This document shows, piece by piece, positions 45,881 to 61,055 of a stretch of 64,000 nt of DNA. This DNA is from a bacterium (GTDB taxonomy: Bacteria > Patescibacteriota > Patescibacteriia > UBA1558 > UBA10009). Each line of letters starts with the position of its first letter. Position 1 is the first letter of the stretch. The translations under genes and the position numbers were made by a program. The notes below the pieces were generated by a model. It searched no databases, had not been told where the DNA came from, and saw only the letters and a program-made list of their open reading frames with translations. Location: positions 136,884-200,883 of the forward strand of contig JABHGM010000001.1 of NCBI GenBank assembly GCA_018672055.1, given 5' to 3'.

Positions 45881-45923
45881 ACTTTTACTAGTCACGGGGG
45901 TTCGAATCCCTCCCTCTCCGCCA
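45834..45923 (+). tRNA. tRNA-Ser (CGA) with a long variable arm, CCA encoded
   Basis: GGAGAGG acceptor stem, anticodon loop CTCGAAA, a long extra arm, GGTTCGAATCC T-loop. Confidence 0.9.
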
Positions 45924-46514: not shown

Positions 46515-47994
46515 AGAAATTAAAAACATTTTAAATGATCTATATAAAATAGATAAAAGTTTTAAAAAACATGAATCTGAATTAATTAAAACTATAAATG
46601 AATTAATAAATAATAAGCCAAAAATTATTATTAACAAAGATTTTAGAGAAGAATTAAAATCTAAACTCATTAAACAAGCTAAAAAGCTCAATAAAACAAA
46701 AATTAAAAAACTAAACTTAAACTTTATGAAATTAAGAAACTATTATTATGTATTCGGCAGTTTTGCTATTATTATCTTAATAGTTATATCATCTGTTTAC
46801 TACTCAAATCAAACAAGTAACCTAGCCTTTGGATTAAATATTGAATCTGTTTCAGAAAATGCCTTTGGATCTATTGAAAATAATCTTTCCGCTAATGAAA
46901 CCGTCGACAGGCAAGCATTGGGCATTGGCGCTGGAGGCGGAGGCGGTTATGCAACTGCTTCTTCAGAAATGGCTACTAAATCAGATACAGCTGTTTCTAT
47001 GATAGCCCCTGATTATATGAATAATTTTCAATACATATATGAAGGTGATGAAATAACTATCTCTGAAAATGAAATGGCAGTACTTAAAAAATCAAAAAAC
47101 ATTAATAATCTTAATCTTTCATCAATAATTAATAACTTTAATTTTGAAACTGTTAATTTAAATAAGTTTTCTGATGCAAAAGTCCAAAATATTTCGTTTG
47201 CTCAAGAAAAAGACTTTGGTTATCAAGTTTATCTTAATTTCTTAGAAGGCCAGGTTAGTCTTAACCAAAACTACAGCACTTGGCCACAAAATAATGAGCA
47301 TGGATGTATAGGTGATGTTTGTACAATAGAAATACAGCAAAGGACTTCTATTTCTGATGTTCCAGAAAACCAGGCTTTAATCAATATTGCAAATGATTTT
47401 TTAAATGAATATGACATAGATACTTCCCTATACGGCGAACCTGAAGTAGATAACAGATGGAAAATATATTATGAACAATCCAAAGATAAGGCTAGCTACT
47501 ATATTCCAGAAGTTATTAATGTGCTCTATCCTCTCAAAATCAATAACCAAATTGTATATAATGAAGGAGGCAATAAAGAGGGTTTAAATCTGGCTATTCA
47601 TATTAAATATAAGAAGGTTTATAGTCTACATAACCTAACCTCGCAGAATTATCAAAGTTCAATGTATAAAACTGAGACTGATATAAATAAAATTTTGGAT
47701 ATAGCAAGACGAGGAGGTAGAAATGTTTATACATATCAAAACAATCAGAAAGTTATTGAAGTTAAAATAGGAACACCAACACTATCATATGTAAAAATAT
47801 GGCAATATAATAATAATCAAAATGATGAATTATTGGTTCCAGCATTTATATTTCCCATCTTAGAAAAACCAGCTGTTAACTATTTTTACAAAGATAATAT
47901 AATAGTCCCTCTTATTAGTGATATGCTTGATTCAGATAATAATCCACGAGTAATGCCTATGCCTCTTGTTGAACCTGCAATAATGGAAAATTAA
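46507..47994 (+). CDS. putative anti-sigma factor (cytoplasmic N-domain, single TM, large extracytoplasmic domain)
   Basis: Overlaps the sigma factor by 8 nt. Has a ~80-aa N-terminal region, TM YYVFGSFAIIILIVISSVYY, and a ~395-aa outer domain. Assignment is by position and topology only. Confidence 0.35.
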   Translation: MDKEIKNILNDLYKIDKSFKKHESELIKTINELINNKPKIIINKDFREELKSKLIKQAKKLNKTKIKKLNLNFMKLRNYYYVFGSFAIIILIVISSVYYSNQTSNLAFGLNIESVSENAFGSIENNLSANETVDRQALGIGAGGGGGYATASSEMATKSDTAVSMIAPDYMNNFQYIYEGDEITISENEMAVLKKSKNINNLNLSSIINNFNFETVNLNKFSDAKVQNISFAQEKDFGYQVYLNFLEGQVSLNQNYSTWPQNNEHGCIGDVCTIEIQQRTSISDVPENQALINIANDFLNEYDIDTSLYGEPEVDNRWKIYYEQSKDKASYYIPEVINVLYPLKINNQIVYNEGGNKEGLNLAIHIKYKKVYSLHNLTSQNYQSSMYKTETDINKILDIARRGGRNVYTYQNNQKVIEVKIGTPTLSYVKIWQYNNNQNDELLVPAFIFPILEKPAVNYFYKDNIIVPLISDMLDSDNNPRVMPMPLVEPAIMEN

Positions 47995-48005
47995 TAATTA
48001 TATAT

Positions 48006-48040
48006 AAAAGCTCTAATAATATACTTAGAGCTTTTATATT
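48006..48040 (+). terminator. rho-independent terminator
   Basis: AAAGCTCTA-10 nt-TAGAGCTTT followed by a T-rich run. Confidence 0.45.
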
Positions 48041-48074
48041 TACCTAATATTAGCTAAATTATATCAATTATTTA

Positions 48075-48103
48075 TTGACAAAACTTCTAACACATGCTAA
48101 TAT
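48075..48103 (+). promoter_or_regulatory. sigma70-like promoter of a short leader or sRNA unit
   Basis: TTGACA (48075-48080), a 17-nt spacer, TAATAT (48098-48103). Confidence 0.45.
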
Positions 48104-48165
48104 AATATATCGTCTACTAACTATGGTAGATGAAATAAAAGTCCGAATGGACAAGGAGAATCTAT

Positions 48166-48210
48166 ATGATTCAAACAAAACCAGTATTGAACAAAAGCCA
48201 TACAAGCTAA
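48166..48210 (+). CDS. 14-codon mini-ORF with a strong Shine-Dalgarno (possible leader peptide or small protein)
   Basis: AAGGAG (48154-48159) sits 6 nt before the ATG at 48166. The ORF reads MIQTKPVLNKSHTS then TAA. SD sites this strong are rare elsewhere in the window. Confidence 0.25.
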   Translation: MIQTKPVLNKSHTS

Positions 48211-48349
48211 TCAAATCTATGCCGGTGACAAGGTGCTAAAAGCAACCTTGAAAAATTCCCTGAAGTATTAAACTTTTAAAATCAGATTACAATACTCCTA
48301 TTAGAATAATTTTAGGATAATTGCTTTAAAATGATAATAATCTAATTTT

Positions 48350-48379
48350 GAAAATCCTGCTTCAGGGATTTTCTTTTTA
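48350..48379 (+). terminator. rho-independent terminator with a possible alternative antiterminator pairing
   Basis: GAAAATCC-tgcttcag-GGATTTTC followed by TTTTT. The CTTCAGGGA segment of the loop and 3' arm is perfectly complementary to TCCCTGAAG at 48258-48266. Confidence 0.5.
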
Positions 48380-48382
48380 TTA

Positions 48383-48411
48383 TTGCTTATATACTTTAAA
48401 AATTGTATAAT
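48383..48411 (+). promoter_or_regulatory. sigma70-like promoter immediately upstream of galU
   Basis: TTGCTT (48383-48388), a 17-nt spacer, TGTATAAT (48404-48411). It would give a near-leaderless transcript for the ATG at 48424. Confidence 0.4.
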
Positions 48412-48423
48412 AATATCATATTT

Positions 48424-49287
48424 ATGACTAAAATTCGCAAAGCAATTATACCAGTAGCTGGTTTTGGAACTAGATTCCTACCTGCTTCAAAAGCTCAGCC
48501 TAAAGAAATGTTGCCTATAGTTGATAAACCAACTATTCAATACATTGTCGAAGGCTGTGTTAAGGCTGGAATAAAAGATATTATCTTTGTTACTTCAAGT
48601 AACAAACGTGCTGTTGAAGATCACTTTGATAATTCAACTGGTTTAGAAAATTGGTTAAAAAAACAAGGCAAAACTAAACAGTTAAATGAAATTAAAAAAA
48701 TTGCTCAGATGGCTAATTTTATTTACATCCGACAAAAAGGACCTATGGGTAATGGTACTCCTGTTTTAAATGCTGAAAAAATAATTGGTGATGAGCCCTT
48801 TATGGTTTTTTGGGGTGATGAATTCTATACTGGTCCTAAATCTTGGGTAAAACAAATGATTGATGTCTATGAAAAATATGGAGATCCAGTTCTAGCTGCT
48901 GTTAAAACTGATAAAGAAGGCCAGGCTCGTTACGGAATTATTGATGGCGTTAAAGTAGATAAAAATATTTATGAAATTAAAAAAGTAATTGAAAAACCTG
49001 GTCCTAAAAAAGCACCTTCTAAATTAGCTTCAGTTGGTGGTTATCTTTTAACACCTGATATATTCCCTATTTTAAAAAAATTAAAACCTAGTAAAGGTGG
49101 TGAAGTATGGCTAGCTGATGCTATTCATACACTAAGCAAACAAAGAGCTATGTATGCCTGTGAAATTGATGGTGAATTATATGATGCCGGAACTCTATTT
49201 GGTTGGTTAAAGGCTAATGTTGATCTAGCTTTAACTCATCCTAAAATAAGTAAAGAATTTAAAAAATATCTTAAAAAAATTAAGTAA
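48424..49287 (+). CDS. galU: UTP--glucose-1-phosphate uridylyltransferase
   Basis: MTKIRKAIIPVAGFGTRFLPASKAQPKEMLPIVDKPTIQYIVEG is the canonical GalU N-terminus. The ORF track starts at 48403, but that start would place the -10 element inside the coding sequence. Confidence 0.8.
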   Translation: MTKIRKAIIPVAGFGTRFLPASKAQPKEMLPIVDKPTIQYIVEGCVKAGIKDIIFVTSSNKRAVEDHFDNSTGLENWLKKQGKTKQLNEIKKIAQMANFIYIRQKGPMGNGTPVLNAEKIIGDEPFMVFWGDEFYTGPKSWVKQMIDVYEKYGDPVLAAVKTDKEGQARYGIIDGVKVDKNIYEIKKVIEKPGPKKAPSKLASVGGYLLTPDIFPILKKLKPSKGGEVWLADAIHTLSKQRAMYACEIDGELYDAGTLFGWLKANVDLALTHPKISKEFKKYLKKIK

Positions 49288-50660
49288 TGAGATTATTTTC
49301 AAACAAAATATTCGTTTTACTCTTAATTAGTACTTTCTTTTTAACTACTGGTTTATCTTGTAAATTATTTCCCGGTAAACAAGCTCCTGCTGCATATACC
49401 AAAGCTCAAACTTTAACTTTTTGGGGTGTCTGGGATACAAGTGATGATTTAGAAGTGTTGATAAAAGATTTTAAAGCTATACATCCAAATATTAAAATAA
49501 GTTATAAGAAGTTTAGATATCAAGAATATGAACAAAAACTTTTAGAAGCTTGGGCTGAAGACAGAGGTCCGGATATATATAGTATTCCAGCTACTTGGCT
49601 TAGAAAATATAAATCAAAAATTACTCCAATGCCGGATAGCACTAAACTTAGTTTTCAAGAAGTAAAAACTACTTTAGGTAAAACTGAAATAAATACCTAT
49701 GTTAGAGATATTCCAACCTACAGTGCTCGTGACATTAAAAATGAATTCGTTGATGTTGTCTATAATGATGTAATAATCGGTGGTAAAGTATTAGGTATAC
49801 CATTTAGCATGGATACTTTAGTTCTTTACTATAATAAAGATTTACTAGATGCTAGCGATATACCTGTACCTCCAACTGATTGGACTGAATTAAAAGAAGC
49901 TGTTAAAAAAATTACTAAAGTAAATAATAATAATGAAATATTACAAGCTGGTGTAGCTTTGGGTGTAGCTGACAATCTACCACATAGCGTTGATATAGCT
50001 TCTTTACTCATGATTCAAAATGGAGCACAAATGGTTGATGCTCGTGGTCAAGTTGCTTTCCATACTTCACCTACTAAAGATAAAAGTTATGCTCCAGGAC
50101 TCCAAGCTTTACAATTCTATCTAGACTTTGCAGATCCAATAAAAGAAGTATATTCTTGGAATAATAATCAAAATGATGCCTTTAATGCTTTTGTCTCGGG
50201 TAAACTTGCTATGTTCTACGGCTATTCATATCACTTACCTCTCATTAAAACTCAAGCTCCCAAATTAGAAATAGATATTGCCCCAATGACTCAGATAGAA
50301 GGTTCTCAAAAAAATATTAATTATACTGATTACTGGGTCTATACTGTTTCTCATAAATCAGCCAATACTGATGCTGCTTGGGGTTTTATAAACTTTGCTT
50401 CAGGTGACAAAGAAGTAACTAAGTATTTAAATCAAACTAAAAAACCTACAGCTTTAAGAAGTTTAATTACAAAGCAAAAAGCAGATCCAGAACTAGCAGT
50501 CTTTGCAGATCAAGTATTAACTGCTACCCATTGGTATAGAGGTAATGATGCTTTAAAAATGGAAGAATTCTTTAAAGAAATGTTAGACAGGCTACCTAAT
50601 GCAGCAGATCCTATTGAAATAATGCAAAACGCAGCTTTAAAAATAAATCAAACTTTATAA
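49287..50660 (+). CDS. ABC-type extracellular solute-binding lipoprotein (sugar-binding family 1), orphan
   Basis: Lipobox LTTGLSC, then TLTFWGVWDTSDD...LEAWAEDRGPDIYSIPATW typical of SBP_bac_1. No permease or ATPase genes are adjacent. The start overlaps the galU stop, and the stop lies 1 nt before the first pilin-like gene. Confidence 0.6.
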   Translation: MRLFSNKIFVLLLISTFFLTTGLSCKLFPGKQAPAAYTKAQTLTFWGVWDTSDDLEVLIKDFKAIHPNIKISYKKFRYQEYEQKLLEAWAEDRGPDIYSIPATWLRKYKSKITPMPDSTKLSFQEVKTTLGKTEINTYVRDIPTYSARDIKNEFVDVVYNDVIIGGKVLGIPFSMDTLVLYYNKDLLDASDIPVPPTDWTELKEAVKKITKVNNNNEILQAGVALGVADNLPHSVDIASLLMIQNGAQMVDARGQVAFHTSPTKDKSYAPGLQALQFYLDFADPIKEVYSWNNNQNDAFNAFVSGKLAMFYGYSYHLPLIKTQAPKLEIDIAPMTQIEGSQKNINYTDYWVYTVSHKSANTDAAWGFINFASGDKEVTKYLNQTKKPTALRSLITKQKADPELAVFADQVLTATHWYRGNDALKMEEFFKEMLDRLPNAADPIEIMQNAALKINQTL

Positions 50661-50661
50661 T

Positions 50662-51417
50662 ATGAAATTATTTATATTAATAATTACTTTGCTTATACTA
50701 TTAAACCCATTAGCAGCTGAGGCTAGTGTCTTACCTGCTTGTACAGCTACTGGTAATTGTGGTTTATGTGACTTTTTTGATACTTTCATTAATATTATAA
50801 ATTGGTTACTAGGCGTTGTTGGTGGAATTGCTCTTTTCTTATTTGGCTGGCATGGTTTTGGTATGATAACTAGCGCAGGTAACCCAGAAAAAGTAACTGC
50901 TGCCAGAAAAGGCATGATGCATACTGTTTTAGGAATAGTTATTATTATTTTCTCTTGGTTCTTAGTTACTATCATAATCGGCATATTACTATCAACACCT
51001 GGTTCTACAGGTGATGATGCTTTCAAAAATACTTTATTTAATAATGAAGCTGCTTGGAATCAATATTGTGTAGGTAAGACTGATATTAAAAAATGCCAAG
51101 GCAGAGGCCTAGGTAGTCCTTGTGGTAGTGGTAACTTCTGTTATCCTGACGATGGTAACAAAAAAGTACTAACTTGTACTAATTCAGCTTTTATAGATAA
51201 TAAAGATGGGGATGCTCTGATTGAGGTCAAGAATGCCTGTGAATATTGGGCCAATAGGCCACTCAACCCTAAAGAAGGTTTTCATAATAATCCATACACT
51301 GGCTATACTTGTTTAGAAAAAAAATTATGTGATCCATATGAAAATTTAGGTGCCAGTTATTGTGCTACTTCTGATGCTGAATGTTGTCTGACGCTCCCCT
51401 TTGATCCTTTTTTATAA
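50662..51417 (+). CDS. VirB2/TrbC-like (T4SS-type) pilin-family paralog 1, with a ~140-aa Cys-rich C-terminal module
   Basis: Signal peptide, a variable segment (ACTATGNCGLCDFF), the helix-loop-helix core LFGWHGFGMITSAGNPEKVTAARKG then IIIFSWFLVTIIIG, and a tail with about 15 Cys. Confidence 0.5.
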   Translation: MKLFILIITLLILLNPLAAEASVLPACTATGNCGLCDFFDTFINIINWLLGVVGGIALFLFGWHGFGMITSAGNPEKVTAARKGMMHTVLGIVIIIFSWFLVTIIIGILLSTPGSTGDDAFKNTLFNNEAAWNQYCVGKTDIKKCQGRGLGSPCGSGNFCYPDDGNKKVLTCTNSAFIDNKDGDALIEVKNACEYWANRPLNPKEGFHNNPYTGYTCLEKKLCDPYENLGASYCATSDAECCLTLPFDPFL

Positions 51418-51431
51418 TAATATAAATAAAT

Positions 51432-51827
51432 ATGATAAATAAAAAAAACATTTCAATTCTTTTCCTAGCTATTCTAATGGCTACTCTAATCATTCCTCTA
51501 CCTTTAACTCTAAATGCTGCTGGTAACTGTGGTAACAGTTATTCTGAAGACGATTCAGGAAGTTGTTTAGAAAATCCTTTAGGCTCAGAAACAATTGATC
51601 TGCCAACTTTATATGGTAGGTTACTTTTCTACGGTGTCCTTTTTGTAACTGGTGGTGTAGCTTTAATTATGTTTGTAATAGGTGGCTTTATGTGGATGAC
51701 TGCAGCAGGTAATCCTGAGAAAATTAAAAAAGGTAAAGACACATTAATGTGGGCTATCTTGGGAATAATATTGATATTTTCTAGTTATTCCATACTTCGT
51801 GCTATCTTTGAAATATTACAATTTTAA
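51432..51827 (+). CDS. VirB2/TrbC-like pilin-family paralog 2
   Basis: Signal peptide, a GNCG-containing variable segment, then the core GGFMWMTAAGNPEKIKKGKDTLMWAILGIILIF. Confidence 0.55.
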   Translation: MINKKNISILFLAILMATLIIPLPLTLNAAGNCGNSYSEDDSGSCLENPLGSETIDLPTLYGRLLFYGVLFVTGGVALIMFVIGGFMWMTAAGNPEKIKKGKDTLMWAILGIILIFSSYSILRAIFEILQF

Positions 51828-51961
51828 ATTATCTAGTTTTATTATTAGAATTATTGTATAATATAACTAGGTTATCCACATTTAAAATAAATTTAAATAA
51901 TATTAATTAAAGTAAATTAAAACAAAAACAAAATTTTAATTTACATTTAAGGAGCAAGTCT

Positions 51962-52351
51962 ATGAAAAAATACTTTTCAAAAAAAAGTATCATGGCTTCA
52001 GCAGCAACTATTCTTTGGGTAGTCCCAATGATAGTTGGCGCACAAGTTGATGCTGACTTTGGATTAGGTTATCCTGCAGCAACTGGCTTGGGCACAAACG
52101 ACTTAAAAGACACTATTATAGCTGTACTAAATGTACTGCTTGGTTTCTTAGGCATAATTGCCGTAATTGTAATCTTACTTGGTGGTTTCAAATGGATGAC
52201 AGCCGCTGGTAATGAAGACAAAGTCGCTGAAGCTAAAAAACTACTTGGCGCTGGTATTGTCGGTATAATAATTATATTATCCGCCTATGCAATTGCCACT
52301 TACGTTATTACTCAGATTCAAACCTCGACCGGTGGCACTTTAATTGAGTGA
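51962..52351 (+). CDS. VirB2/TrbC-like pilin-family paralog 3
   Basis: Strong SD AAGGAG. Signal peptide, then the core GGFKWMTAAGNEDKVAEAKKLLGAGIVGIIIILSAY. Confidence 0.55.
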   Translation: MKKYFSKKSIMASAATILWVVPMIVGAQVDADFGLGYPAATGLGTNDLKDTIIAVLNVLLGFLGIIAVIVILLGGFKWMTAAGNEDKVAEAKKLLGAGIVGIIIILSAYAIATYVITQIQTSTGGTLIE

Positions 52352-52450
52352 TAAACTTTAAAAAACTATAGTTATTTAAAGTCTAGACGTTTTCCTCCTC
52401 TGTTTGAGGGGGAATGGCTTAGACTGTAATGACAACTTATACAAAATTAA

Positions 52451-52864
52451 ATGTTTGAAAAACTATACAAACAGTTAATAATTCGGGCATTATTCTTTGC
52501 CCTATTTTTGTATTTGGTAATACCTTTTAATTTACAAGCTTCCCCTGCTGGTGATATTGCTACTCAAATATTAGAAGATACAGCTGTTGAAGCTAAATTA
52601 ATTAATTCAGCAGACAATGCTTTAAATATCTTTGAAATCTCTGGCTTTGTAATTAATATAGTTTTAGGATTTGTAGGTATAATATTTCTAGTCCTTATAA
52701 TTGCTGGTGGCTATATGTGGATGACTGCAGGAGGTAATGATGAAAAAGTAACTAAAGGTAAATCTCTTTTAACTCAATCAATTATAGCTTTAGCTGTTAT
52801 TCTAAGCGCTTTCCTATTAACCAACTTTGTTATAATAAGATTAATGACTAATCTATGGGGTTAA
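52451..52864 (+). CDS. VirB2/TrbC-like pilin-family paralog 4
   Basis: Core GGYMWMTAGGNDEKVTKGKSLLTQSIIALAVILSAF. Confidence 0.55.
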   Translation: MFEKLYKQLIIRALFFALFLYLVIPFNLQASPAGDIATQILEDTAVEAKLINSADNALNIFEISGFVINIVLGFVGIIFLVLIIAGGYMWMTAGGNDEKVTKGKSLLTQSIIALAVILSAFLLTNFVIIRLMTNLWG

Positions 52865-53526
52865 TTAAAAAAAACTTATTTTTAATTCTAATACTATGTT
52901 TTTTAATTATTCCTTTTTATACTCAAGCTGAAGCTGCTTGTCCAAAAAGTCTTAGTATTCAAGAATGTGTTAAATGGGGTCTAGAACAAACTAGCGCTGA
53001 AGCAGGCTATACATTTAATGAAAATCTTGATTCTCAAAGTATTTCAGAAACTGTAGGTAATATTATTTCAAATATTTTAACCTTTTTAGGTGCTTTAGTC
53101 TTGATAATGATTATTACGGCTGGTTTTCAATGGTTAACTGCCCAAGGCGATGAAGAGAAGCTAAACACTGCTAAATCTAGACTGAAGAATGCATTAATTG
53201 GTTTATTAATAATTGTAGCTGCATTTGCTATTACTACATTTGTAACTAGTAATCTAAAAAATATTATTGATGATGCTACAATACCTGATAATCCTGCTAA
53301 TTATATATGCTCTAATTATGATTATGATGTCTGTATTGATAATGTTGACAGAGCTTGTGGTTATTGGATTCCTGATCAAGGATGCTATCCAAACCCTTTT
53401 GACTGTGATTTACGATATCCTTCAGATTGTGAAATACCTGATCCTGATACAGGCCATGATGTTTGTTTGGGTGAAGGCGGTAACTGTATAATAACGCCCC
53501 AAGGCGATAGTTGTTATTGTAATTAA
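52855..53526 (+). CDS. VirB2/TrbC-like pilin-family paralog 5, with a Cys-rich C-terminal module
   Basis: Core AGFQWLTAQGDEEKLNTAKSRLKNALIGLLIIVAAF, then an ~85-aa tail with 12 Cys (CSNYDYDVCIDNVDRACGYW...CYCN). Overlaps paralog 4 by 10 nt. Confidence 0.55.
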   Translation: MGLIKKNLFLILILCFLIIPFYTQAEAACPKSLSIQECVKWGLEQTSAEAGYTFNENLDSQSISETVGNIISNILTFLGALVLIMIITAGFQWLTAQGDEEKLNTAKSRLKNALIGLLIIVAAFAITTFVTSNLKNIIDDATIPDNPANYICSNYDYDVCIDNVDRACGYWIPDQGCYPNPFDCDLRYPSDCEIPDPDTGHDVCLGEGGNCIITPQGDSCYCN

Positions 53527-53527
53527 T

Positions 53528-54073
53528 ATGAATAAAAAATATATAATTCTGTTTCTAACCTTAATAATCTTACTTATTCCTGTTTTAACATACTCCGCAA
53601 ATATTACAGATATAATAGAAGGGTTAGATAAAACAGCAGAAAAATCACTTTTAATAGATCCTAATGAAGAGGCTACTACAATATATGATATGATTGGACG
53701 TATTCTATTTTTTACTTTAAGCCTTCTTGGTATTATTTTCTTAGGTTTAATTATATTTGGTGGTATTGGTTGGTTAACAGCTGCTGGCAATGAAGAAAAG
53801 ATAACTAAAGCTAAAGGTTTGATGTCTAATGCTTTAATTGGTTTAATAATAATAATTGCTGCATATACTATAGCTAACTTTGTAATATTTACTTTAGCTG
53901 ATAAAATAACTGAGGGCAATGATTCATTATGTATAGAAGCTTCAGGAGAATGCCAAAACCATGCATTGGGTGCCACAGATTGCACAATTAATGGTTCTCC
54001 TGGTACTTATGCTTCTAATTATTGTGGAAGTCAATCAAATGATTCTCTTTATCGTTGCTGTATAGCTAACTAA
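53528..54073 (+). CDS. VirB2/TrbC-like pilin-family paralog 6, with a Cys-rich C-terminal module
   Basis: Core GGIGWLTAAGNEEKITKAKGLMSNALIGLIIIIAAY, then a ~60-aa tail with 8 Cys. Starts 1 nt after paralog 5. Confidence 0.55.
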   Translation: MNKKYIILFLTLIILLIPVLTYSANITDIIEGLDKTAEKSLLIDPNEEATTIYDMIGRILFFTLSLLGIIFLGLIIFGGIGWLTAAGNEEKITKAKGLMSNALIGLIIIIAAYTIANFVIFTLADKITEGNDSLCIEASGECQNHALGATDCTINGSPGTYASNYCGSQSNDSLYRCCIAN

Positions 54074-54079
54074 TAATTT

Positions 54080-54589
54080 ATGTTTTTAAATTTAAAAAAA
54101 TCTTTATTTATTCTAATAATAAGTTTTTTAATACTAAGTCCTTCTTTATTATTCGCTCAATCTCCAGAGGATCCTAGTAATCAACCTAATTATACTTATA
54201 AGCAAATTTGTAAATGGGGTGATAATTTAACTGATTGCTTAGAAGAAAATTATAATACTATTACTGGGACTGAGAATGATGATTTTGAAAAAGTAACTTC
54301 TGCAAGTTTATCTACAAAAATAGGAATTATCATTTCATACGTTTTAGCATTTTTAGGAGTTATTTTCTTAGTTTTAATTGTAATTTCTGGATTTCAATGG
54401 TTAACAGCTGGTGGGAATGAAGAAACTGTAACTACTTCTAGAAAAAGAATTATTAATGCTGTTGTTGGCCTCATTATTATTCTCTCTGCCTACGTTATTA
54501 CTGCTTTTGTTACTGATAGGATAGAAAGATCTATTGATAAAACAAATACTGTTAGTATTAATTTGCCTAGTGACTATTTATCTATTTAA
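54080..54589 (+). CDS. VirB2/TrbC-like pilin-family paralog 7
   Basis: Core SGFQWLTAGGNEETVTTSRKRIINAVVGLIIILSAY. Confidence 0.55.
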   Translation: MFLNLKKSLFILIISFLILSPSLLFAQSPEDPSNQPNYTYKQICKWGDNLTDCLEENYNTITGTENDDFEKVTSASLSTKIGIIISYVLAFLGVIFLVLIVISGFQWLTAGGNEETVTTSRKRIINAVVGLIIILSAYVITAFVTDRIERSIDKTNTVSINLPSDYLSI

Positions 54590-54604
54590 TATTTAATTAT
54601 TTAT

Positions 54605-54976
54605 ATGACTAAAAAAATTATAATTTCATTACTAATACTAATTATCTCTAGTTTTTTAATAATCCCCGCTCTAGCTCAAACAAATATAAATACCAATCTT
54701 GAAGCAGCTGGAGAAGGTGCTAAGTATAATATAGACGTTGATGATAATACTATACCTGAAATAATTGGTAAAGTAGTGGCTACTCTACTGGCTTTTGTCA
54801 CCTCAATTTTTATGATGATGGTTGTTTTCTCTGGCGTTCAATGGATGGTTGCTGGAGGTAATGAAGAAAAAATTACTAAAGCTCGTGGTAGATTAATAAG
54901 TAGTATTATTGGCGTAGGTATAACTGCTGCTGCTTATTTCATAACCTGGTTAATTACTGAAACTTTACTAAAATAA
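54605..54976 (+). CDS. VirB2/TrbC-like pilin-family paralog 8
   Basis: Core SGVQWMVAGGNEEKITKARGRLISSIIGVGITAAAY. Confidence 0.55.
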   Translation: MTKKIIISLLILIISSFLIIPALAQTNINTNLEAAGEGAKYNIDVDDNTIPEIIGKVVATLLAFVTSIFMMMVVFSGVQWMVAGGNEEKITKARGRLISSIIGVGITAAAYFITWLITETLLK

Positions 54977-54979
54977 AAT

Positions 54980-55648
54980 ATGAAATCATTTCTTTTAATA
55001 ATTGCTGTTTGTTTCTTAATCCTAGCACCCTTAACTGTGTCTAATGCTTTAAATTTAGGCCAAGAAACATATTTAGAAAGTTTAGCTGGTACAGCCGGCT
55101 ATCAAATTGATAGTGTTCAATCTAATACCTATCTTGATTCGACAATTGGTAAACTACTAGCAAGTATATTTACTTTAGTTGGTATTTCTTTCTTATCACT
55201 TATCATTGTTTCTGGATTTCAATGGATAAACGCTCATGGTAATGAAGAAAGCGCTAAAAAAGCTAAAGATCGAATAATCCATGCTACTATTGGATTAATT
55301 ATTATTGCTTCTTCCTATTTAATCTCCTTCTTCATATATAATTCAATAAATTCCTCAATTACTGGCGAGGTTAATAACTTTGTTCCAGAACCAGGCTTAG
55401 AATGTATAGATAATACAAATTGTATTGGGCATGAAAATGGACCTTACTGTAACTATAATCAAGCTACTGGTTATTGTGGTGGGTGTACAGATGACGATGA
55501 TTGTTCAAGCCCTACTCCTGAATGTGTACGTCCTCTTATTGGCCCTAGCTCATGTCATGAATGCGTAATAGATGCAGATTGTTCTGATAATTTTGGTCCC
55601 AGTTTTGTTTGTGGTAATTTCGAATGTATAGAAAATAATGATTTTTAA
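54980..55648 (+). CDS. VirB2/TrbC-like pilin-family paralog 9, with a Cys-rich C-terminal module
   Basis: Core SGFQWINAHGNEESAKKAKDRIIHATIGLIIIASSY, then a ~100-aa tail with 13 Cys, including the repeated C-x-E-C...D-x-C motifs CTDDDDCSSPTPEC and CHECVIDADC. Confidence 0.55.
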   Translation: MKSFLLIIAVCFLILAPLTVSNALNLGQETYLESLAGTAGYQIDSVQSNTYLDSTIGKLLASIFTLVGISFLSLIIVSGFQWINAHGNEESAKKAKDRIIHATIGLIIIASSYLISFFIYNSINSSITGEVNNFVPEPGLECIDNTNCIGHENGPYCNYNQATGYCGGCTDDDDCSSPTPECVRPLIGPSSCHECVIDADCSDNFGPSFVCGNFECIENNDF

Positions 55649-55653
55649 TTAAT

Positions 55654-56631
55654 ATGATAAAAAAATATAAAAAAATAATATTAAGCTCTCTAATCCTACT
55701 TTTTTTAATACTGGGAATAAATGTTTTAGCACAAGGTGGTTTTCAACAAGAGTTAATAAATAATATTGCTAGTACTACTGAAATTGTTGGTCAAGGACCA
55801 GGTTACAATACAAACGCTCAAGGTGAGGATTTTTTTGGAGGTATTTTAATTAAAATATTTGGTTATGGAATTAGTTTCTTAGGCGTTTTCTTCATGTTAC
55901 TTATTGTCTACTCTGGATTTCAATGGATGTTTTCTAGTGGTAATGAAGAAAAGGTTACTCAAGCTAAAACTAGAATTACTCAAGCAGTGACAGGTTTAGT
56001 TATTGTCTTAGGTGCTTTTATAATCTCCTATGCTATATTCTCATTCTTGACTACAGAATATTTAGAAACCCCTTCCTCTGGCATTCAAGCTCCTGATGGT
56101 TATCAAGAGCAAATAGCTTGTAGTAATTCTAATAGTGATACGCCTCCTGAATGCGCTGATAGAGGAACTAGAATATATTGTTCTAGCTCTGGTAATTGTG
56201 TTGAATGTTTAGACGACGCACGTTGTGCAGAAGCTCCATTTGAACCGCTCGGCTTAACATCTTGCGACCCAACTTGGAATGTTTGTACTTTCGATTTAGA
56301 TCATACATGTGCTGAAATTACCAACGCTGGCTTATGCATATCTAATGAAAGTTGTAATTGGGCACTGACACCGTCTAACCCAACATGGGAGACAGGTGTA
56401 TGTGTTAATTCAAATGAATATAATTGCACAACTGGACAATGCCCTCAAGATAGGCCATATTGCATAAATAATAATCAACCAGAAGGAGAATATAGCTGTC
56501 ATGAATGCAGCCCTGGTATAGATGCTTCATGTGGTCTTTTAAAAAACTGCACACAGCCATTTCTTGAAGGTGGTGAAGGTATCAATGAAGATGATTATCA
56601 TCTCTACATTTGTACAATTTTTGGTTTTTAA
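55654..56631 (+). CDS. VirB2/TrbC-like pilin-family paralog 10, with a long (~185-aa) Cys-rich C-terminal module
   Basis: Core SGFQWMFSSGNEEKVTQAKTRITQAVTGLVIVLGAF, then a tail with about 24 Cys including CVECLDDARC and CHECSPGIDASC, the same motif seen in paralog 9. Confidence 0.55.
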   Translation: MIKKYKKIILSSLILLFLILGINVLAQGGFQQELINNIASTTEIVGQGPGYNTNAQGEDFFGGILIKIFGYGISFLGVFFMLLIVYSGFQWMFSSGNEEKVTQAKTRITQAVTGLVIVLGAFIISYAIFSFLTTEYLETPSSGIQAPDGYQEQIACSNSNSDTPPECADRGTRIYCSSSGNCVECLDDARCAEAPFEPLGLTSCDPTWNVCTFDLDHTCAEITNAGLCISNESCNWALTPSNPTWETGVCVNSNEYNCTTGQCPQDRPYCINNNQPEGEYSCHECSPGIDASCGLLKNCTQPFLEGGEGINEDDYHLYICTIFGF

Positions 56632-56643
56632 ATAATAAAACAT

Positions 56644-57051
56644 ATGAAAAAAACAATATTAAAAATTTCTAGCCTTTCCCTTATTATAGGATTAGGCTTT
56701 ACAAAAATAGCTTTGGCTATGCCAACGTTAAATCCTTTAGCCAGAATGAAACACACTGCTGATGTTATTGGTCTGTCCACTGTAAATGTTCATCCAGCTG
56801 AAGTAGCAGCTAATATTATTGCCATCATACTCGGATTAGTAGGTATTATATTTTTTGTGATGATACTTTTTTCTGGTTATGAGCTTATGACTTCTGGTGG
56901 TAACGAAGAAGTAGTGGGTAGAGCTAAAAAAAGATTACAATATGCAATTATTGGAATTGTAGTAATCTCTCTTTCATACATAATAACTATTTATGTTTCT
57001 GAATTAATAAACAGAGCTACATGTGAAGGTTATTATTGTATTAATGAATAA
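56644..57051 (+). CDS. VirB2/TrbC-like pilin-family paralog 11
   Basis: Core SGYELMTSGGNEEVVGRAKKRLQYAIIGIVVISLSY, with the conserved Trp replaced, and a short C-terminal CEGYYCINE. A hairpin and T-run (AGACTGACTTCAT/ATGAAGTCAGTCT) follow the stop. Confidence 0.5.
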   Translation: MKKTILKISSLSLIIGLGFTKIALAMPTLNPLARMKHTADVIGLSTVNVHPAEVAANIIAIILGLVGIIFFVMILFSGYELMTSGGNEEVVGRAKKRLQYAIIGIVVISLSYIITIYVSELINRATCEGYYCINE

Positions 57052-57125
57052 TATATTATTTAAAGACTGACTTCATAAATGAAGTCAGTCTTTTTTATTT
57101 ACTAAATACTTGTTAAACTAGTAAC

Positions 57126-59045
57126 ATGATTAATTATATTAAAGAAAAACAAATTAAAATATTAATAATATCTATTATTACCTATATTACTATTTTTTCT
57201 TTAATTTGCTACTGGAAGTACCTTAATTTTGGCTATAATGGCTTAGATTTGACGATATTTAACCAAGTTTTCTTTAATTCGGTACATGGTGACTTTTTTA
57301 GGTTTACTATCCATCCTGGGCTATATTTAGGCGATCACTTTACGCCTATTATTCTATTACTTCTGCCATTATATTACTTTTTTCAAAGCCCAATTACTCT
57401 GCTTATTCTACAAACTATTATCCTAGCTTTATCTGCTTGGCCAATATATTTAATTGCTAAAAAATATTTACCTTCTGCCTGGCCACTTTTTATTTCCTTA
57501 GCCTGGCTTTTTAATCCATTCGTACAAAATGTAAATCTTTTTGAATTTCATTTACTTCCTTTTGCAATATTTTTAATATTCTGGACGTTTTATTTTTATT
57601 TAAAAAATAACTTTAACTTATTTCTTCTATTCTCTCTTCTGAGCATGTTGGTTAGAGAAGATGTGGCTTTAGTAATTATTATGATGGCTGTACTGGCTCT
57701 TTTTGAAAAAAGAAAATGGTTTTGGTTTATTATTCCAGGGGTAATAAGTATTATCTATTTCTTAACCTCTATGTCTATAATCGGACATTTTACTCCTGAC
57801 GGACAATACAAATTTCTTTACTACTACAATTTTTTAGGTAACAGCTTTAAAGAAATAATTATAACTGCTTTAACTAAACCTTGGCTTATTATTAAACAAA
57901 TTGCATCATGGCATAACTTATTTTTTACTCTAACGCTTTTTATGCCCTTTGCTTATCTATTAAGACTTAAATATTTGATACCAGCTTTTTTAATCTACCT
58001 CCAACTAATCATTGGGAGTGCTAATGACTCAGTTTTGGTCCTTAGTATGCACTATGTTTCTTTATTACTGCCCCCAATATTTATTGCTTTTATTATGTTT
58101 TTGAATAGATTCCTATTAACTGATAACTATTTAAAATTAAAAAGCCTTCTTCAATTAAATAATTCATTATTTATATTAATTCTTTCAACAATTGTATTGT
58201 ATAGTTCTTTAACTATGGGCCCTCTGCCCTCTGTTGCTAAAAATTTAATAAGCCCCGGTTGGTCAGAAGAAAAACTATTAATTAAAAAAGAATTAGTTAA
58301 AAATATTTCACCTAGTGATAATTTAGGAGCTACTTATGAATTTCTATCACCCATGTCGTCAAGGCATAATCTCTATTCAATGCATTATGCGTTCTTAGGT
58401 AAATTACAATTTTCTAATACAGATTATGAGCTACCATTAGACGTTGATACATTGCTTATTGATTTTAATGATTTTATATACTATGAACTACAATACCCTG
58501 ACGAGCCAACTTGGCAATCATATTATCAAAAAGGTGATGATAGTATAAGGAAGTTAATTGAAGAACGTAGTTTTGGGATAACTAAAATTAATGACTTATA
58601 TGTTTTAATGAAAAAAGATGTAAATAATAATATTAAGTTATATGAAATAGTTGACGATACTAAGTTTGATGAAGTGGATTATAAAAAAATAGGTGAAAAT
58701 ATTTCATTCCTGGGTTATGAAAATAATTTAGATCATATTTCACTATATTTTAAATCAAATTCTAAACTTAATGAAGACTATCAAATAAGATTAATTGGTA
58801 AAAATAATAATGAAGAAGTTTTTAATAGATATTTACCACTAGCCTACGGCTTATACCCCACCAGAGAGTGGGGAAAAGATGAAATTATTAAAATTAATTA
58901 TTATTTGAATTTAAAAGATGTATCTTCTTTAGAATTAAATTTAGTTAATCTTCAAGGCTACTACACTTTAAATAACCTAGGAACCATGATAAATAAAATA
59001 ACCCAAGAAAATACCCTGGGTTATGTTAAAATCGATTTAGATTAA
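57126..59045 (+). CDS. large polytopic membrane protein with a C-terminal extracytoplasmic domain; GT-C-fold glycosyltransferase-like (DUF2079-like) candidate
   Basis: About 11 TM helices in the first 360 aa. After TM1 comes a long first external loop with Asp/His residues (GYNGLDLTIFNQVFFNSVHGDFFRFTIHPGLYLGDHF) as in GT-C enzymes, then a ~280-aa soluble C-terminal domain. Confidence 0.3.
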   Translation: MINYIKEKQIKILIISIITYITIFSLICYWKYLNFGYNGLDLTIFNQVFFNSVHGDFFRFTIHPGLYLGDHFTPIILLLLPLYYFFQSPITLLILQTIILALSAWPIYLIAKKYLPSAWPLFISLAWLFNPFVQNVNLFEFHLLPFAIFLIFWTFYFYLKNNFNLFLLFSLLSMLVREDVALVIIMMAVLALFEKRKWFWFIIPGVISIIYFLTSMSIIGHFTPDGQYKFLYYYNFLGNSFKEIIITALTKPWLIIKQIASWHNLFFTLTLFMPFAYLLRLKYLIPAFLIYLQLIIGSANDSVLVLSMHYVSLLLPPIFIAFIMFLNRFLLTDNYLKLKSLLQLNNSLFILILSTIVLYSSLTMGPLPSVAKNLISPGWSEEKLLIKKELVKNISPSDNLGATYEFLSPMSSRHNLYSMHYAFLGKLQFSNTDYELPLDVDTLLIDFNDFIYYELQYPDEPTWQSYYQKGDDSIRKLIEERSFGITKINDLYVLMKKDVNNNIKLYEIVDDTKFDEVDYKKIGENISFLGYENNLDHISLYFKSNSKLNEDYQIRLIGKNNNEEVFNRYLPLAYGLYPTREWGKDEIIKINYYLNLKDVSSLELNLVNLQGYYTLNNLGTMINKITQENTLGYVKIDLD

Positions 59046-60022
59046 ATCTTATCCCTAAACTTCAACCACTTGCTCATAATCTTTGGTGCTAAATAGATAG
59101 CAATAAACGCTACTAATAATCCAGCTAGCAGATCTATTAAGTAATGCCATCTTAAATAAAGAGTAGAAAGCCAAACAGACGTTACTAATGGAATATGTAG
59201 ATAATATAAATACTTAAGGTATTTATTTTTTCTTAAATATTTCCAAGCAAAGTATAACCAAATAAAAGTTACTCCAAAGTGAAGACTTGGAAAACAATGC
59301 AAAGCCCTATTTTCAATCAAATATTCCATTACCATAGTATTGGGAGTATAGTATGGCTCGCCATTTAAAGTAATAAGTTCAGTTGTTAAAACCTCCTTTT
59401 GAGCTAGTAATGGACCATCACAAGGCACTAAAACATACCCTGCTAGTCCTAAAAAATTAGTTATTATGACAGTCAATAAAAGAGTTTCAAAAACTCTTTT
59501 ACTTTTAAAAATAGAATATATTATTGGGTTCACAAAATAAAACACAAAATATAAAGTGTAAGCAAAAGCAAACCAACTAGTTAGGCCTGGAGTAATTAAT
59601 TTTTCAAATAAAACTGCAATGTCGTTACCAAATAATAGTGCTCTATCAATGCTTATTAATACTTCATCATAATTATTTGAATTAAAAAATCTTGTTATAT
59701 CATGAATTGAATCGTATATGTATAAAAAAATAAAAAAAGGAATTATTTGAATAATAAAATCCTTAGTAGCAATTAAGGCCTCTTTAAATATTTCTAATAT
59801 CTTTATATCTTCTTTAAATCTAGTAAACAATATAAGAGTTAGTTTAATTAAAGAAAAGCCTAAAATTATATAAATAAATAAAATAATTCCACTAATCTCA
59901 TTAATCGAATTAATTGGCAAATTAAAAACTTTAAACGCTAAGAGAGTTAATGTTAAACAAATAAAACTAACCCAGAATACTGGGTTAAAAAAATTTAATA
60001 TAAACTGCTTGTATTTTTCCAT
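59042..60022 (-). CDS. PAP2-superfamily-like membrane phosphatase/phosphotransferase candidate
   Basis: Polytopic. CFPSLHFGVT resembles the PSGH motif, and LRWHYLIDLLAG resembles the SRxxxxxHxxxD motif. Confidence 0.35.
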   Translation of the reverse strand: MEKYKQFILNFFNPVFWVSFICLTLTLLAFKVFNLPINSINEISGIILFIYIILGFSLIKLTLILFTRFKEDIKILEIFKEALIATKDFIIQIIPFFIFLYIYDSIHDITRFFNSNNYDEVLISIDRALLFGNDIAVLFEKLITPGLTSWFAFAYTLYFVFYFVNPIIYSIFKSKRVFETLLLTVIITNFLGLAGYVLVPCDGPLLAQKEVLTTELITLNGEPYYTPNTMVMEYLIENRALHCFPSLHFGVTFIWLYFAWKYLRKNKYLKYLYYLHIPLVTSVWLSTLYLRWHYLIDLLAGLLVAFIAIYLAPKIMSKWLKFRDKI

Positions 60023-60029: not shown

Positions 60030-61055
60030 CTACTTACTAGCCATCCTATGTTTAAAATAATCTACCCAAGGTATAAGAGTGGGGTCTTGTTTATTAAGCT
60101 TAGTTAATTTAAAAGATAATAAAGCACCAAAAGTAAGCATGCTAAATACTTGCTCTTCTTTTGTTCCATTCAACTTAATATCAGAATATTTTATCTTATA
60201 TTTATTCAATACTTCTTTCATTACTTTATATCTCTTTTGATTTCTAGGTAAATACATGTCTGAGTTTACTAAAACAAAGTGTAATAACTTAGTATTTGCT
60301 TTAGGGAAGGTTAAGCCTTCTAACAAATGATGGTTTAATTCTGGAATATGGTAATAATATGCTAACTGTTTTGAAGATTCGTTTGTTTGATTAGTTATAA
60401 TATGTCCATTACCCTCTAAAAATTCTGAGGTAACATATATTATTATTTTGTCTTTTAATTTCTTAGCTAAATTATCTACTTCTTTAGTTTTTGTATATTT
60501 TTTATAACTCTTAACTAAATATTTAGCTAAATTATCTACTTCACTATCTGTTATTTTTAAAGCTCCTGATTTTTTTAATATTTGTAAAACAGCTCCGGTG
60601 GTATAGCTAGTTCCCATCCTTGGTTGACCGCTAGGATTATCTATTGGATCAAATAAATATATTGGTAGCTTATATTTCTTAGCTAAGCTGGCTAACTTGC
60701 CTCCCGTACATATGGCTAGAGCTTTAAGTCCTCTCTTCTTTGCTTCGTGTGCTCCGCTTATTACCTCTTCTGTACTGCCCGAATAACTTGATAAAATAAC
60801 TAATGTTTTTTTATCAACATACTTTGGTAATTTATAACCTCTAATTTGTGTAATAGGATATTTTAATCTATCAAAAAATAAAGCATTTATTAAATCTACA
60901 CCTAATTGAGAACCACCCATTCCAACAACTAATACCTTATTTATATCACTAAAATTCTTAGGTAACTTTAATAATTTTGCCTCATTATAGCTTGCTAATA
61001 ATTGTTTACCGCTAAGCTCAATTGACTCTAAATATGTCTCATCTGCTTTATTCAT
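60030..61055 (-). CDS. SIS-domain bifunctional phosphoglucose/phosphomannose isomerase-like protein
   Basis: VLVVGMGGSQLGVDL matches the GMGGS motif of archaeal-type PGI/PMI, and the protein has two SIS-like halves. Confidence 0.55.
   Translation of the reverse strand: MNKADETYLESIELSGKQLLASYNEAKLLKLPKNFSDINKVLVVGMGGSQLGVDLINALFFDRLKYPITQIRGYKLPKYVDKKTLVILSSYSGSTEEVISGAHEAKKRGLKALAICTGGKLASLAKKYKLPIYLFDPIDNPSGQPRMGTSYTTGAVLQILKKSGALKITDSEVDNLAKYLVKSYKKYTKTKEVDNLAKKLKDKIIIYVTSEFLEGNGHIITNQTNESSKQLAYYYHIPELNHHLLEGLTFPKANTKLLHFVLVNSDMYLPRNQKRYKVMKEVLNKYKIKYSDIKLNGTKEEQVFSMLTFGALLSFKLTKLNKQDPTLIPWVDYFKHRMASK

Follow-up and report, generated by a model that had tools for sequence, protein, structure and literature searches.

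Tandem arrays of VirB2-like pilin genes, with 2–11 genes per array, have been surveyed in 383 Patescibacteria assemblies (PMC12102498, Microb Genom 2025). In Southlakia epibionticum such an array lies inside a type IV secretion system (T4SS) gene cluster and is essential (PMC10633639; reviewed in PMC12857230). Few other gene sets have been shown to be indispensable to a cultivated Patescibacterium living as an epibiont (PMC10633639). Here, we describe an array of eleven pilin genes in a 64,000-nucleotide (nt) stretch of another Patescibacterium (contig JABHGM010000001.1 of assembly GCA_018672055.1, positions 136,884–200,883), hereinafter called the window, in which all coordinates are given unless a related locus is named. 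The array is headed by galU and by the gene of a solute-binding protein (SBP) that lacks transporter partners, and it is flanked by a gene for a predicted glycosyltransferase of the GT-C fold. Neither an SBP nor a glycosyltransferase partner of the arrays is mentioned in PMC12102498, PMC10633639, or PMC12857230, and a full-text search of open-access papers and preprints returned nothing on a link of either with such pilins.

The locus shares with the Southlakia arrays (SEML1_0006–0019) the assignment of the pilins to PF18895 with weak TrbC matches, the chromosomal location, and the monoderm ultra-small bacterium, and with the Patescibacteria arrays in general the succession of tandem, sequence-divergent paralogs (2–11 per array in the survey, eleven here). 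It differs in that the Southlakia array adjoins virB4 in the T4SS cluster, whereas Pfam scans found no T4SS machinery in the 64 kb, and in that an orphan SBP and galU head the array and a GT-C enzyme flanks it here, neither of which is described in the papers on the Southlakia and surveyed arrays. The survey proposed that the paralogs may aid adaptation to different host strains (PMC12102498), whereas the set described here is ancient and positionally orthologous. Tandem divergent VirB2 paralogs are also known from the Trw T4SS of Bartonella (trwL; also trwJ, encoding VirB5), where they are thought to diversify binding to the host surface (PMC12857230). That system, however, operates in a diderm with the complete VirB machinery encoded adjacently, it has no SBP or glycosyltransferase partner, and its copies arose by amplification in particular lineages and do not form a fixed ancient set.

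In Agrobacterium (ChvE with VirA) and on enterococcal pheromone plasmids (PrgZ and TraC), SBPs take part in type IV secretion or conjugation as sensors or accessory proteins. The likeness lies in an SBP associated with a T4SS-related system and having a role beyond its own transporter. On the other hand, ChvE and PrgZ still work with permeases of ATP-binding cassette (ABC) systems, PrgZ and TraC belong to SBP family 5, and none of the three is translationally coupled to a pilin gene. LpqW of Corynebacterineae, which controls the GT-C mannosyltransferase MptB, is likewise an orphan SBP-fold lipoprotein that acts in an envelope with GT-C enzymes and not in transport; it comes from a different SBP family and has no pilins, whereas the invariant partner in our case is a pilin. 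Finally, extracytoplasmic glycosylation by three-component systems combines a GT2 polyprenyl-phosphate sugar synthase, a flippase, and a GT-C transferase (GtrABC, CsbB/YfhO, Ppm1/Pmt). Relatives of our locus likewise have genes of the GT-C fold (DUF2079 and a family of approximately 540 amino acids, aa) beside GT2, with GalU and a flippase encoded nearby; the window differs in having no GT2 that we could find.

We interpret the region as a conserved cell-surface gene cluster of a Patescibacterium from the Parcubacteria group, and give the explanation as a whole a probability of about 0.5. Its firmest part, which we consider quite likely, is that the SBP works with pilin 1, the product of the first gene of the array, rather than with a transporter. 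The genes concerned are as follows; the values given with family names are E-values.

48424–49287, plus strand: galU, UTP-glucose-1-phosphate uridylyltransferase (open reading frame, ORF, extendable to a TTG at 48403; likely start ATG 48424)
49287–50660, plus strand: SBP of the CUT1 type (SBP_bac_1), predicted lipoprotein (full-length matches to SBP_bac_1, 1.2e-30, and SBP_bac_8, 2.4e-26)
50662–57051, plus strand: pilin array, eleven PF18895 genes, i.e., the following paralogs (p1–p11)
50662–51417, plus strand: paralog 1, 251 aa (PF18895 1.6e-12)
51432–51827, plus strand: paralog 2, 131 aa (PF18895 5e-11), with positional orthologues in relatives
51962–52351, plus strand: paralog 3, 129 aa (PF18895 3.7e-9)
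52451–52864, plus strand: paralog 4, 137 aa (PF18895 2.7e-6)
52855–53526, plus strand: paralog 5, 223 aa, Cys-rich C-terminal extension (PF18895 5e-10)
53528–54073, plus strand: paralog 6, 181 aa, Cys-rich C-terminal extension (PF18895 6e-9)
54080–54589, plus strand: paralog 7, 169 aa (PF18895 8e-8)
54605–54976, plus strand: paralog 8, 123 aa (PF18895 1.3e-8)
54980–55648, plus strand: paralog 9, 222 aa, Cys-rich C-terminal extension (PF18895 3.8e-8)
55654–56631, plus strand: paralog 10, 325 aa, long Cys-rich C-terminal extension (PF18895 1.2e-6)
56644–57051, plus strand: paralog 11, 135 aa (PF18895 7.8e-10)
57062–57093, plus strand: intrinsic terminator closing the galU–SBP–pilin operon, 14-bp stem, then TTTTTTATTT (UUUUUUAUUU)
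57126–59045, plus strand: DUF2079 protein, 639 aa, predicted GT-C fold with a polytopic N-terminal part and a C-terminal beta-sandwich region (Pfam 4e-59)

galU, the SBP gene, and the eleven pilin genes are lined up in one direction at very short distances, and the run ends in a strong terminator. The galU stop codon overlaps the start of the SBP gene (TAATG), and a single nucleotide separates the SBP stop codon from the ATG of paralog 1 (TAA-t-ATG); the gaps from p1 to p11 are, in order, 14, 134, 99, −10, 1, 6, 15, 3, 5, and 12 nt. Both junctions are as described in an earlier interpretation of this DNA from its letters (below, the sequence-only reading), but the galU start that it placed at 48383 is out of frame, the ATG being at 48424. 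The product of 48424–49287 is, from its sequence, in all probability GalU. It matches Pfam NTP_transferase (3e-27) and aligns with the TIGR01099 GalU model over positions 1–261 of 261 (325.1 bits, E 3.4e-97), the cut-off of 326.8 being 1.7 bits higher.

The sequence-only reading had further linked galU, the SBP, the pilins, and the 639-aa protein by operon context. The tight coupling is real for galU, the SBP, and the pilins, but the terminator (dG −19.3 kcal/mol, z −6.65) lies between paralog 11 and DUF2079, which hence is mostly a separate transcription unit. A hairpin with a T-run occupies the same site in most relatives that have a spacer between the pilins and DUF2079, and in four relatives DUF2079 starts only 1–38 nt past the last pilin gene. 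The units are therefore galU–SBP–pilins, DUF2079 (read-through being possible), and a convergent pgi–PAP2 pair described below. The idea that the terminator proves DUF2079 to be unrelated to the array was rejected, as the gene keeps its position in four of four loci anchored on DUF2079 and abuts the last pilin gene in some relatives.

At least 542 genomes (one per species) encode a relative of the SBP, and the best 80 loci were taken for comparison (loci are numbered with the prefix L). Their six-frame ORFs were searched with the window proteins and with a hidden Markov model (HMM) of the eleven window pilins. The arrangement recurs in dozens of species-level genomes. Pfam-annotated relatives at 51–65% SBP identity have galU, the SBP, 9–12 pilins, and DUF2079, often with a flippase and Wzy_C upstream. 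At approximately 49% identity, one pilin gene directly follows the SBP, galU and DUF2079 are absent, and a separate array of 6–7 pilins is situated 2–8 kb downstream. The adjacency itself is invariant: a pilin gene directly follows the SBP in 86 of the 86 loci whose sequence continues beyond it (in the other four, the contig ends there), at a distance of mostly −4 to +28 nt, with a median of about 5 nt. Clustering of all ORFs defined four architectures, in which minus-strand genes are marked.

Type A: galU, SBP, 7–12 pilins, DUF2079, and an approximately 540-aa gene (minus)
Type A': flippase, Wzy_C, SBP, 4–6 pilins, GT2 (minus), approximately 540-aa gene (minus), and pgi (minus)
Type B (split): SMC, (ComM), SBP, pilin 1, RodZ-like gene, methyltransferase, then, after an interval, GT2 (minus), MptA_B/PMT_2 (minus), approximately 540-aa gene (minus), and 6–7 pilins
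Type B': SBP, pilin 1, RodZ-like gene, and RecA, with no array within 10 kb

The SBP–pilin adjacency is kept across all four types despite their differing flanks. All four loci anchored on DUF2079 (homologues of 37–38% identity) have the SBP and pilins upstream; galU and the pgi–yebC–ruvC boundary are each present in three of the four. A double SBP at 32% identity still precedes four pilin genes in L096, and in L094 the SBP (34% identity) is followed by a 718-aa protein, the last 90 residues of which are of the pilin-1 type (E 6e-17 with the pilin-1 HMM). Loss of the order galU–SBP–pilins–DUF2079 in relatives would have spoken against the sequence-only reading, but the order is kept at 52–80% SBP identity and in the four DUF2079-anchored loci. 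The identity matrices of the SBP and pilin 1 correlate with a Spearman coefficient of 0.81, as vertical inheritance predicts, and this is a sign of co-inheritance, not of interaction.

A RodZ-like (HTH_25/Glucodextran_B) gene and recA are adjacent in the window at 38415–40145, 10 kb upstream of the cluster; in most other lineages (types B and B') they stand directly downstream of the SBP–pilin-1 pair. These positions record a rearrangement in which the pair moved without being split.

The absence of a permease and an ATPase, already claimed in the sequence-only reading, extends well beyond the window. No ABC permease or ATPase was found by Pfam among 60 scanned window ORFs; these include all 12 of at least 100 aa in the 44–64 kb part and 34 of 41 further upstream, where all ORFs above 200 aa were scanned except the two largest, 28706–32116 and 32122–36027. 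Within 10 kb on either side of the SBP in approximately 90 related loci, ABC ATPase and CUT1 permease motifs retrieved SMC proteins only. In L093, intact NMT1-type SBP–ATPase–permease operons are located a few kilobases from the orphan SBP. The local orphan status everywhere and the coupling to pilin 1 in 86 of 86 loci together strongly favor a pilin-linked, non-transport role of the SBP, and in this the sequence-only reading was well directed.

To judge by its sequence, the SBP is under strong constraint and not decaying. The columns of its alignment are on average 59% identical, and the invariant positions include many Trp and Tyr residues as well as G22 and C25 at the end of the hydrophobic leader (23 homologues). 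Homologues of 43–80% identity number in the hundreds, and an exhaustive phmmer search yielded 1077 cluster representatives of the family at E≤1e-30. The distant relatives with solved structures in PDB (MBP1, GacH, MalE-like proteins, and SmoF) bind oligosaccharides. Two observations may be added: the double SBP of L096 (56–2593) is a tandem of two SBP_bac_1 units in 845 aa, followed by the four pilin genes, and lgt, encoding prolipoprotein diacylglyceryl transferase, is found just beyond the array in the split-type loci L008 (20775–21368), L027, L061, L072, and L077.

All eleven pilin paralogs counted in the sequence-only reading are present, and the word pilin is to be understood here as VirB2-type, not as pilins of type IV pili. 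Each scores above the gathering score of PF18895 (T4SS_pilin; 27.8–47.7 bits vs. 26.6), which makes them VirB2/TrbC-like T4SS pilins; paralogs 2, 3, and 5 have weak TrbC matches in addition. The PilA-type alternative is ruled out by this assignment. In the alignment of the eleven sequences, an N-terminal leader is followed by a first transmembrane segment (TM1), a conserved loop W(M/L)TAxGNxEK, and a second segment (TM2), and five paralogs carry Cys-rich C-terminal extensions. Paralog 1 belongs to a distinct orthologue group, pilin-1, with a Cys motif before TM1 and a Cys-rich C-terminal domain (79-sequence alignment; reciprocal best hits).

Seven paralogs (p1, p2, p3, p7, p8, p10, and p11) have collinear reciprocal best hits at 31–70% identity, mostly 40–70%, in six relatives (L001, L003, L005, L011, L012, and L015), whereas the best identity between paralogs within a genome is 30–46%. 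As positional orthologues are closer than paralogs, the array is ancient and ordered, which argues for a fixed heteromeric set of subunits. A recent amplification or a cassette for antigenic variation was ruled out on the same grounds. Paralog 3 is the most conserved, with 50–70% identity to its orthologues, and it is flanked by spacers of 134 and 99 nt that are long in relatives too.

The spacer between p3 and p4 (52352–52450) contains a conserved hairpin, with an outer stem TACAATTTA...TAGATTGTA, an inner G+C stem, and no T-run after it. Some changes in the stem are compensatory, although the covariation support from six sequences (the window, L001, L003, L005, L011, and L012) is weak; the hairpin could be an mRNA stabilizer or a processing site that sets pilin stoichiometry. 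As for the proteins, approximately 600 aa precede the pilin-1 module in L094 (7467–9623) and L091 (7011–9011), and in the window pilin 1 a Cys-rich domain of about 140 aa follows it. The pilin-1 module looks like a two-helix anchor displaying variable surface domains.

The GT-C character attributed to the 639-aa protein by the sequence-only reading is borne out, and the protein belongs to DUF2079, one of the families named there beforehand. Its AlphaFold (AF2) model has a mean predicted local distance difference test score (pLDDT) of 90.9 and a predicted template-modelling score (pTM) of 0.91. All 16 Foldseek matches in PDB at E≤1e-3 are GT-C enzymes (probability 1.00; query-normalised template-modelling scores, TM-scores, 0.33–0.43); they include STT3, ALG12, ALG9, PglB, ArnT, and AglB, with DPY19 and EmbC just below. 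On the strength of the model, DUF2079 is a predicted glycosyltransferase of the GT-C fold. D41 (in the motif NFGYNxLD, just past TM1), D70–H71, and R177–E178–D179 are invariant among 40 homologues, and the model places these residues in loops, with a conserved acidic residue in the first extracytoplasmic one. Membership in the STT3/PglB family of oligosaccharyltransferases was considered and rejected: the 639 aa contain no WWDYG or WWD and have no Pfam STT3 match. DUF2079 is the only Pfam family matched at E≤0.01, and the likeness to STT3 and PglB is at the level of fold only. Similarly, there is no sequence-level membership in PMT, YfhO, or ArnT, phmmer against the PDB sequences gave nothing meaningful, and a full-text search for "DUF2079" in open-access papers and preprints yielded no papers and no characterized member.

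In other architectures, the arrays are flanked by the polytopic family of approximately 540 aa, which has no Pfam match and comprises at least 647 homologues. Members are encoded on the minus strand in L008 (14154–15806), L001 (18153–19802), L015 (19455–21068), and about 40 other loci. The model of one representative (pLDDT 90.6) matches STT3, DPY19, AglB, AftA, and PglB, and so this would be an unannotated GT-C-fold family. Its three sequence clusters are mutually related (hhalign, 86–98% probability), while hhalign detected no sequence-level link between the family and DUF2079; fold searches alone relate both to GT-C. The gene stands directly upstream of 21 of the 27 split-type (B) arrays, usually beside a GT2 gene. 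We treat the repeated flanking of the arrays by two GT-C-fold families without detectable similarity in sequence as a real, if indirect, sign of a functional link.

Upstream of the operon, the window contains the following features.

42482–43900, plus strand: Wzx-type flippase (Pfam), then a small membrane protein
44537–45880, plus strand: Wzy_C O-antigen-ligase-like protein (Pfam)
45990–46514, plus strand: sigma factor of the extracytoplasmic function (ECF) type (Pfam)
46507–47994, plus strand: 495-aa protein overlapping the ECF sigma gene, without a family match, possible anti-sigma factor
47995–48423: non-coding gap upstream of galU, 430 nt
48075–48103, plus strand: promoter-like TTGACA-17-TAATAT in this gap (weak evidence)
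48350–48373, plus strand: hairpin with a T-run, 50 nt upstream of the galU ATG (dG −10.7 kcal/mol, z −3.6)

The flippase and Wzy_C group lies 2.5–6 kb upstream, and a flippase/Wzy_C pair is also found upstream of galU or the SBP in at least ten relatives, namely L001, L003, L005, L011, L012, L014, L031, L034, L073, and L079. The window Wzy_C protein matches two models of O-linking oligosaccharyltransferases, TfpM and PEP_O_lig_1, weakly and far below the cut-offs. The final 47 nt of the Wzy_C ORF coincide with part of a tRNA-Ser(CGA) gene (45834–45923), and the Wzy_C gene probably stops upstream of the mechanical ORF end. The ECF sigma factor and a gene for a protein of about 500 aa are also encountered upstream of galU in L003/L004 (6795–8977) and are absent from most other loci; the pair is a candidate regulator of the galU–SBP–pilin operon. 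A scan for sigma-70 promoters returned 87 sites against 88 expected by chance and is uninformative in such AT-rich DNA. The hairpin at 48350–48373 may either terminate transcription coming from upstream or act as an attenuator in a leader, and the 430-nt gap may encode a small transcript, a 38-codon ORF, or such an attenuator; an Rfam scan of the gap gave sub-threshold noise only and no family match.

To the right of DUF2079, four genes follow.

59042–60022, minus strand: PAP2_3-family membrane protein (PAP2_3 2e-23, 83.6 bits, cut-off 27; PAP2 48.8 bits)
60030–61055, minus strand: pgi, bifunctional phosphoglucose/phosphomannose isomerase (Pfam bact-PGI_C and SIS; NCBIfam)
61126–61830, plus strand: yebC
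61827–62315, plus strand: ruvC

The PAP2 protein, which has a weak NCBIfam match to phosphoinositol dihydroceramide synthase, is PAP2-like and convergent with DUF2079 (4-nt overlap), as the sequence-only reading had it. It does not, however, belong to the cluster, where that reading had included it. It follows pgi on the minus strand at a distance of 7 nt and is the last gene of the pgi transcription unit. Within 10 kb, full-length PAP2 relatives recur in only three other species (the genome of L005/L006/L016, L012, and L040), at varying positions; a shorter PAP2_3 gene is found upstream in L090. That PAP2 is a member of the operon or cluster was rejected given the opposite strand, the pgi unit, and the unconserved adjacency. 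The space from DUF2079 to pgi, filled by PAP2 in the window, is taken up in relatives by one to four genes on the minus strand for proteins of approximately 390–560 aa, mostly of the 540-aa family or GT87/MptA_B-like. The conserved right-hand boundary, pgi–yebC–ruvC, is shared with L090–L092.

The window as a whole is a chromosome fragment of about 30% G+C with housekeeping genes and a 16S rRNA gene. At 6398–8196, the 16S rRNA gene precedes tRNA-Phe and tRNA-Ile, after which protein-coding genes come next. The rRNA operon is unlinked, as the 64 kb contain no 23S rRNA gene. The nearest homologues of the window proteins come from Komeilibacteria, Falkowbacteria, Kuenenbacteria, Buchananbacteria, and metagenome-assembled genomes labeled "Patescibacteria group", and the closest named relatives are Komeilibacteria-like.

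The explanation we favor is as follows. The SBP would no longer feed an ABC importer but would act on the outer side of the membrane alongside pilin 1, which is a VirB2-type module of two helices able, as it seems, to carry large extracellular domains. It would be the carbohydrate-recognizing component of the pilin assembly, most likely binding host or envelope glycans for adhesion, tip function, or sensing, or else helping to nucleate the filament. Recognition of a carbohydrate is the most likely role, but adhesion, sensing, and filament initiation are not firmly rankable. The other ten pilins would be non-redundant subunits of the same structure, of which several would display Cys-rich surface domains, and paralog 3 probably is the major subunit. 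GalU would supply UDP-glucose, and the GT-C enzyme would draw on a lipid-linked sugar in making a surface glycoconjugate required by the system; for this step, we consider the chances even. The acceptor of the glycan may be the pilins or the SBP, and this is the least certain step: gene context makes the pilins themselves a conceivable but doubtful acceptor. Participation of PAP2 is very unlikely.

Several facts weigh against this explanation. To our knowledge, there is no precedent for glycosylated VirB2-type pilins. The lipobox motif of the SBP, G-x-S-C, is atypical, departing from the canonical L-[AS]-[GA]-C. Pfam detected no VirB4, VirB6, or VirD4, either in the scanned window or in the Pfam-annotated loci to a distance of 10 kb from the SBP, which speaks against a classical pilus; the genes of the T4SS machinery could be elsewhere in the genome. 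The window has no detectable member of the 540-aa family and no detectable GT2 synthase of polyprenyl-phosphate sugars, and without a GT2 the route leading from UDP-glucose to the GT-C enzyme has a gap in this locus. A GT-C neighbor is missing at 6 of 27 split-type and 3 of 10 contiguous arrays, and in the window a terminator intervenes between DUF2079 and the pilins. Much of the synteny could simply reflect shared ancestry within one large clade. Lastly, beyond the anatomy of the locus, the functional readings are guilt by association.

Among the other explanations, covalent glycosylation or lipid modification of the pilins, the proposal of the sequence-only reading, survives best, and we still consider it unlikely. 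In this explanation, GalU would make UDP-glucose, the sugar would be charged onto polyprenyl phosphate and transferred to the pilins by DUF2079 outside the membrane, and PAP2 would recycle or remodel the lipid. The best fold matches of DUF2079 are indeed protein glycosyltransferases (STT3, PglB, AglB, DPY19), but TM-scores of 0.4–0.56 support the fold and not the acceptor specificity, and the STT3/PglB signature (WWDYG, Pfam STT3) is lacking. The co-occurrence of galU and DUF2079 around the array and the presence of two GT-C families without detectable sequence similarity at its flanks in different architectures, often with GT2, agree with it; against this, no GT2 was found in the window, some arrays have no GT-C neighbor at all, and the interval from DUF2079 to pgi, with its variable number of genes, would suit a general island for envelope glycans. 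DUF2079 abuts the last pilin in some relatives, at 1–13 nt, but a terminator splits the two in the window and in most relatives, and PAP2, a gene of the pgi operon, is encoded on the opposite strand at a position that is not conserved. The recurrent flippase and Wzy_C upstream are also in its favor, given that the Wzy_C superfamily includes O-oligosaccharyltransferases of type IV pilins and that TfpM is weakly matched. On the whole, the sequence-only reading is thus partly supported.

It is improbable that the SBP is an ordinary transport protein whose permease and ATPase are encoded elsewhere, as for some Gram-positive SBPs, and which is kept near the pilins by co-regulation of host contact with uptake of host sugars. 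Such a role would explain the full-length SBP_bac_1 and SBP_bac_8 matches, the likeness to solved oligosaccharide-binding SBPs, and the many invariant aromatic residues, which are compatible with a retained sugar pocket; galU and pgi nearby also suggest sugar metabolism. However, no permease or ATPase occurs within 10 kb in approximately 90 loci, whereas other ABC systems in the same genomes keep their operons. Moreover, the tight adjacency to pilin 1 survives every rearrangement down to 32% identity, and co-regulation alone rarely maintains that.

A role like that of LpqW is more doubtful still: the SBP-fold lipoprotein would be a cofactor or regulator of GT-C enzymes that hands over a glycolipid intermediate, the pilins being bystanders or merely residents of the same envelope island. 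The clustering of GT-C genes, including MptA_B-family members, around the loci and the flanking galU and pgi would fit. Yet the invariant neighbor of the SBP is pilin 1 and not a GT-C gene, and the pair is kept in 12 SBP–pilin-1–RodZ-like–RecA loci that have none of the tracked GT-C families within 10 kb downstream; besides, LpqW belongs to a different SBP family (family 5).

A frozen accident is hardly credible. The synteny would then be purely historical within one clade, and the genes would act independently: GalU in housekeeping, the SBP while decaying, the pilins in a T4SS, and the GT-C in the envelope. It is true that every locus belongs to a single broad lineage of Patescibacteria, that the SBP and pilin-1 matrices track each other (Spearman 0.81), and that terminators and strand changes cut the region up into units. 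Yet the constraint on the SBP is strong, the SBP–pilin pair has moved among at least four genomic contexts without separation, GT-C neighbors of different families recur, and start and stop codons overlap.

The pilin array itself is of a known kind, but the invariant orphan-SBP partner, the recurrent GT-C neighbors, and the fixed order of the paralogs appear to be undescribed so far. In its boldest form, which we regard as rather unlikely, the interpretation of the region as an SBP–pilin surface module says that a large clade of Patescibacteria turned an oligosaccharide-binding SBP into an obligate, stoichiometric partner of VirB2-type pilins; the two-helix pilin module would anchor or present the SBP and variable Cys-rich or giant extracellular domains on a heteromeric filament of about ten fixed paralogs glycosylated by dedicated GT-C enzymes. 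If true, both a glycan-recognizing component (tip or receptor) and glycosylated pilins would be firsts among pili of the type IV secretion type, and the SBP–pilin assembly might even operate without a nearby T4SS.

For the Patescibacteria arrays, the questions are what they bind, how they are assembled in a monoderm, and why there are so many paralogs, and the locus provides handles on them. Firstly, its array has an invariant and highly conserved partner, a predicted lipoprotein of the sugar-binding type. Secondly, the recurrent GT-C neighbors, including a family missing from Pfam, predict a glycan to look for. Thirdly, the paralogs are a fixed, ordered set and not a variable cassette, which points to a heteromeric structure. 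The SBP, in turn, would be a clear case of an ABC-transporter component recruited to a non-transport role across hundreds of species.

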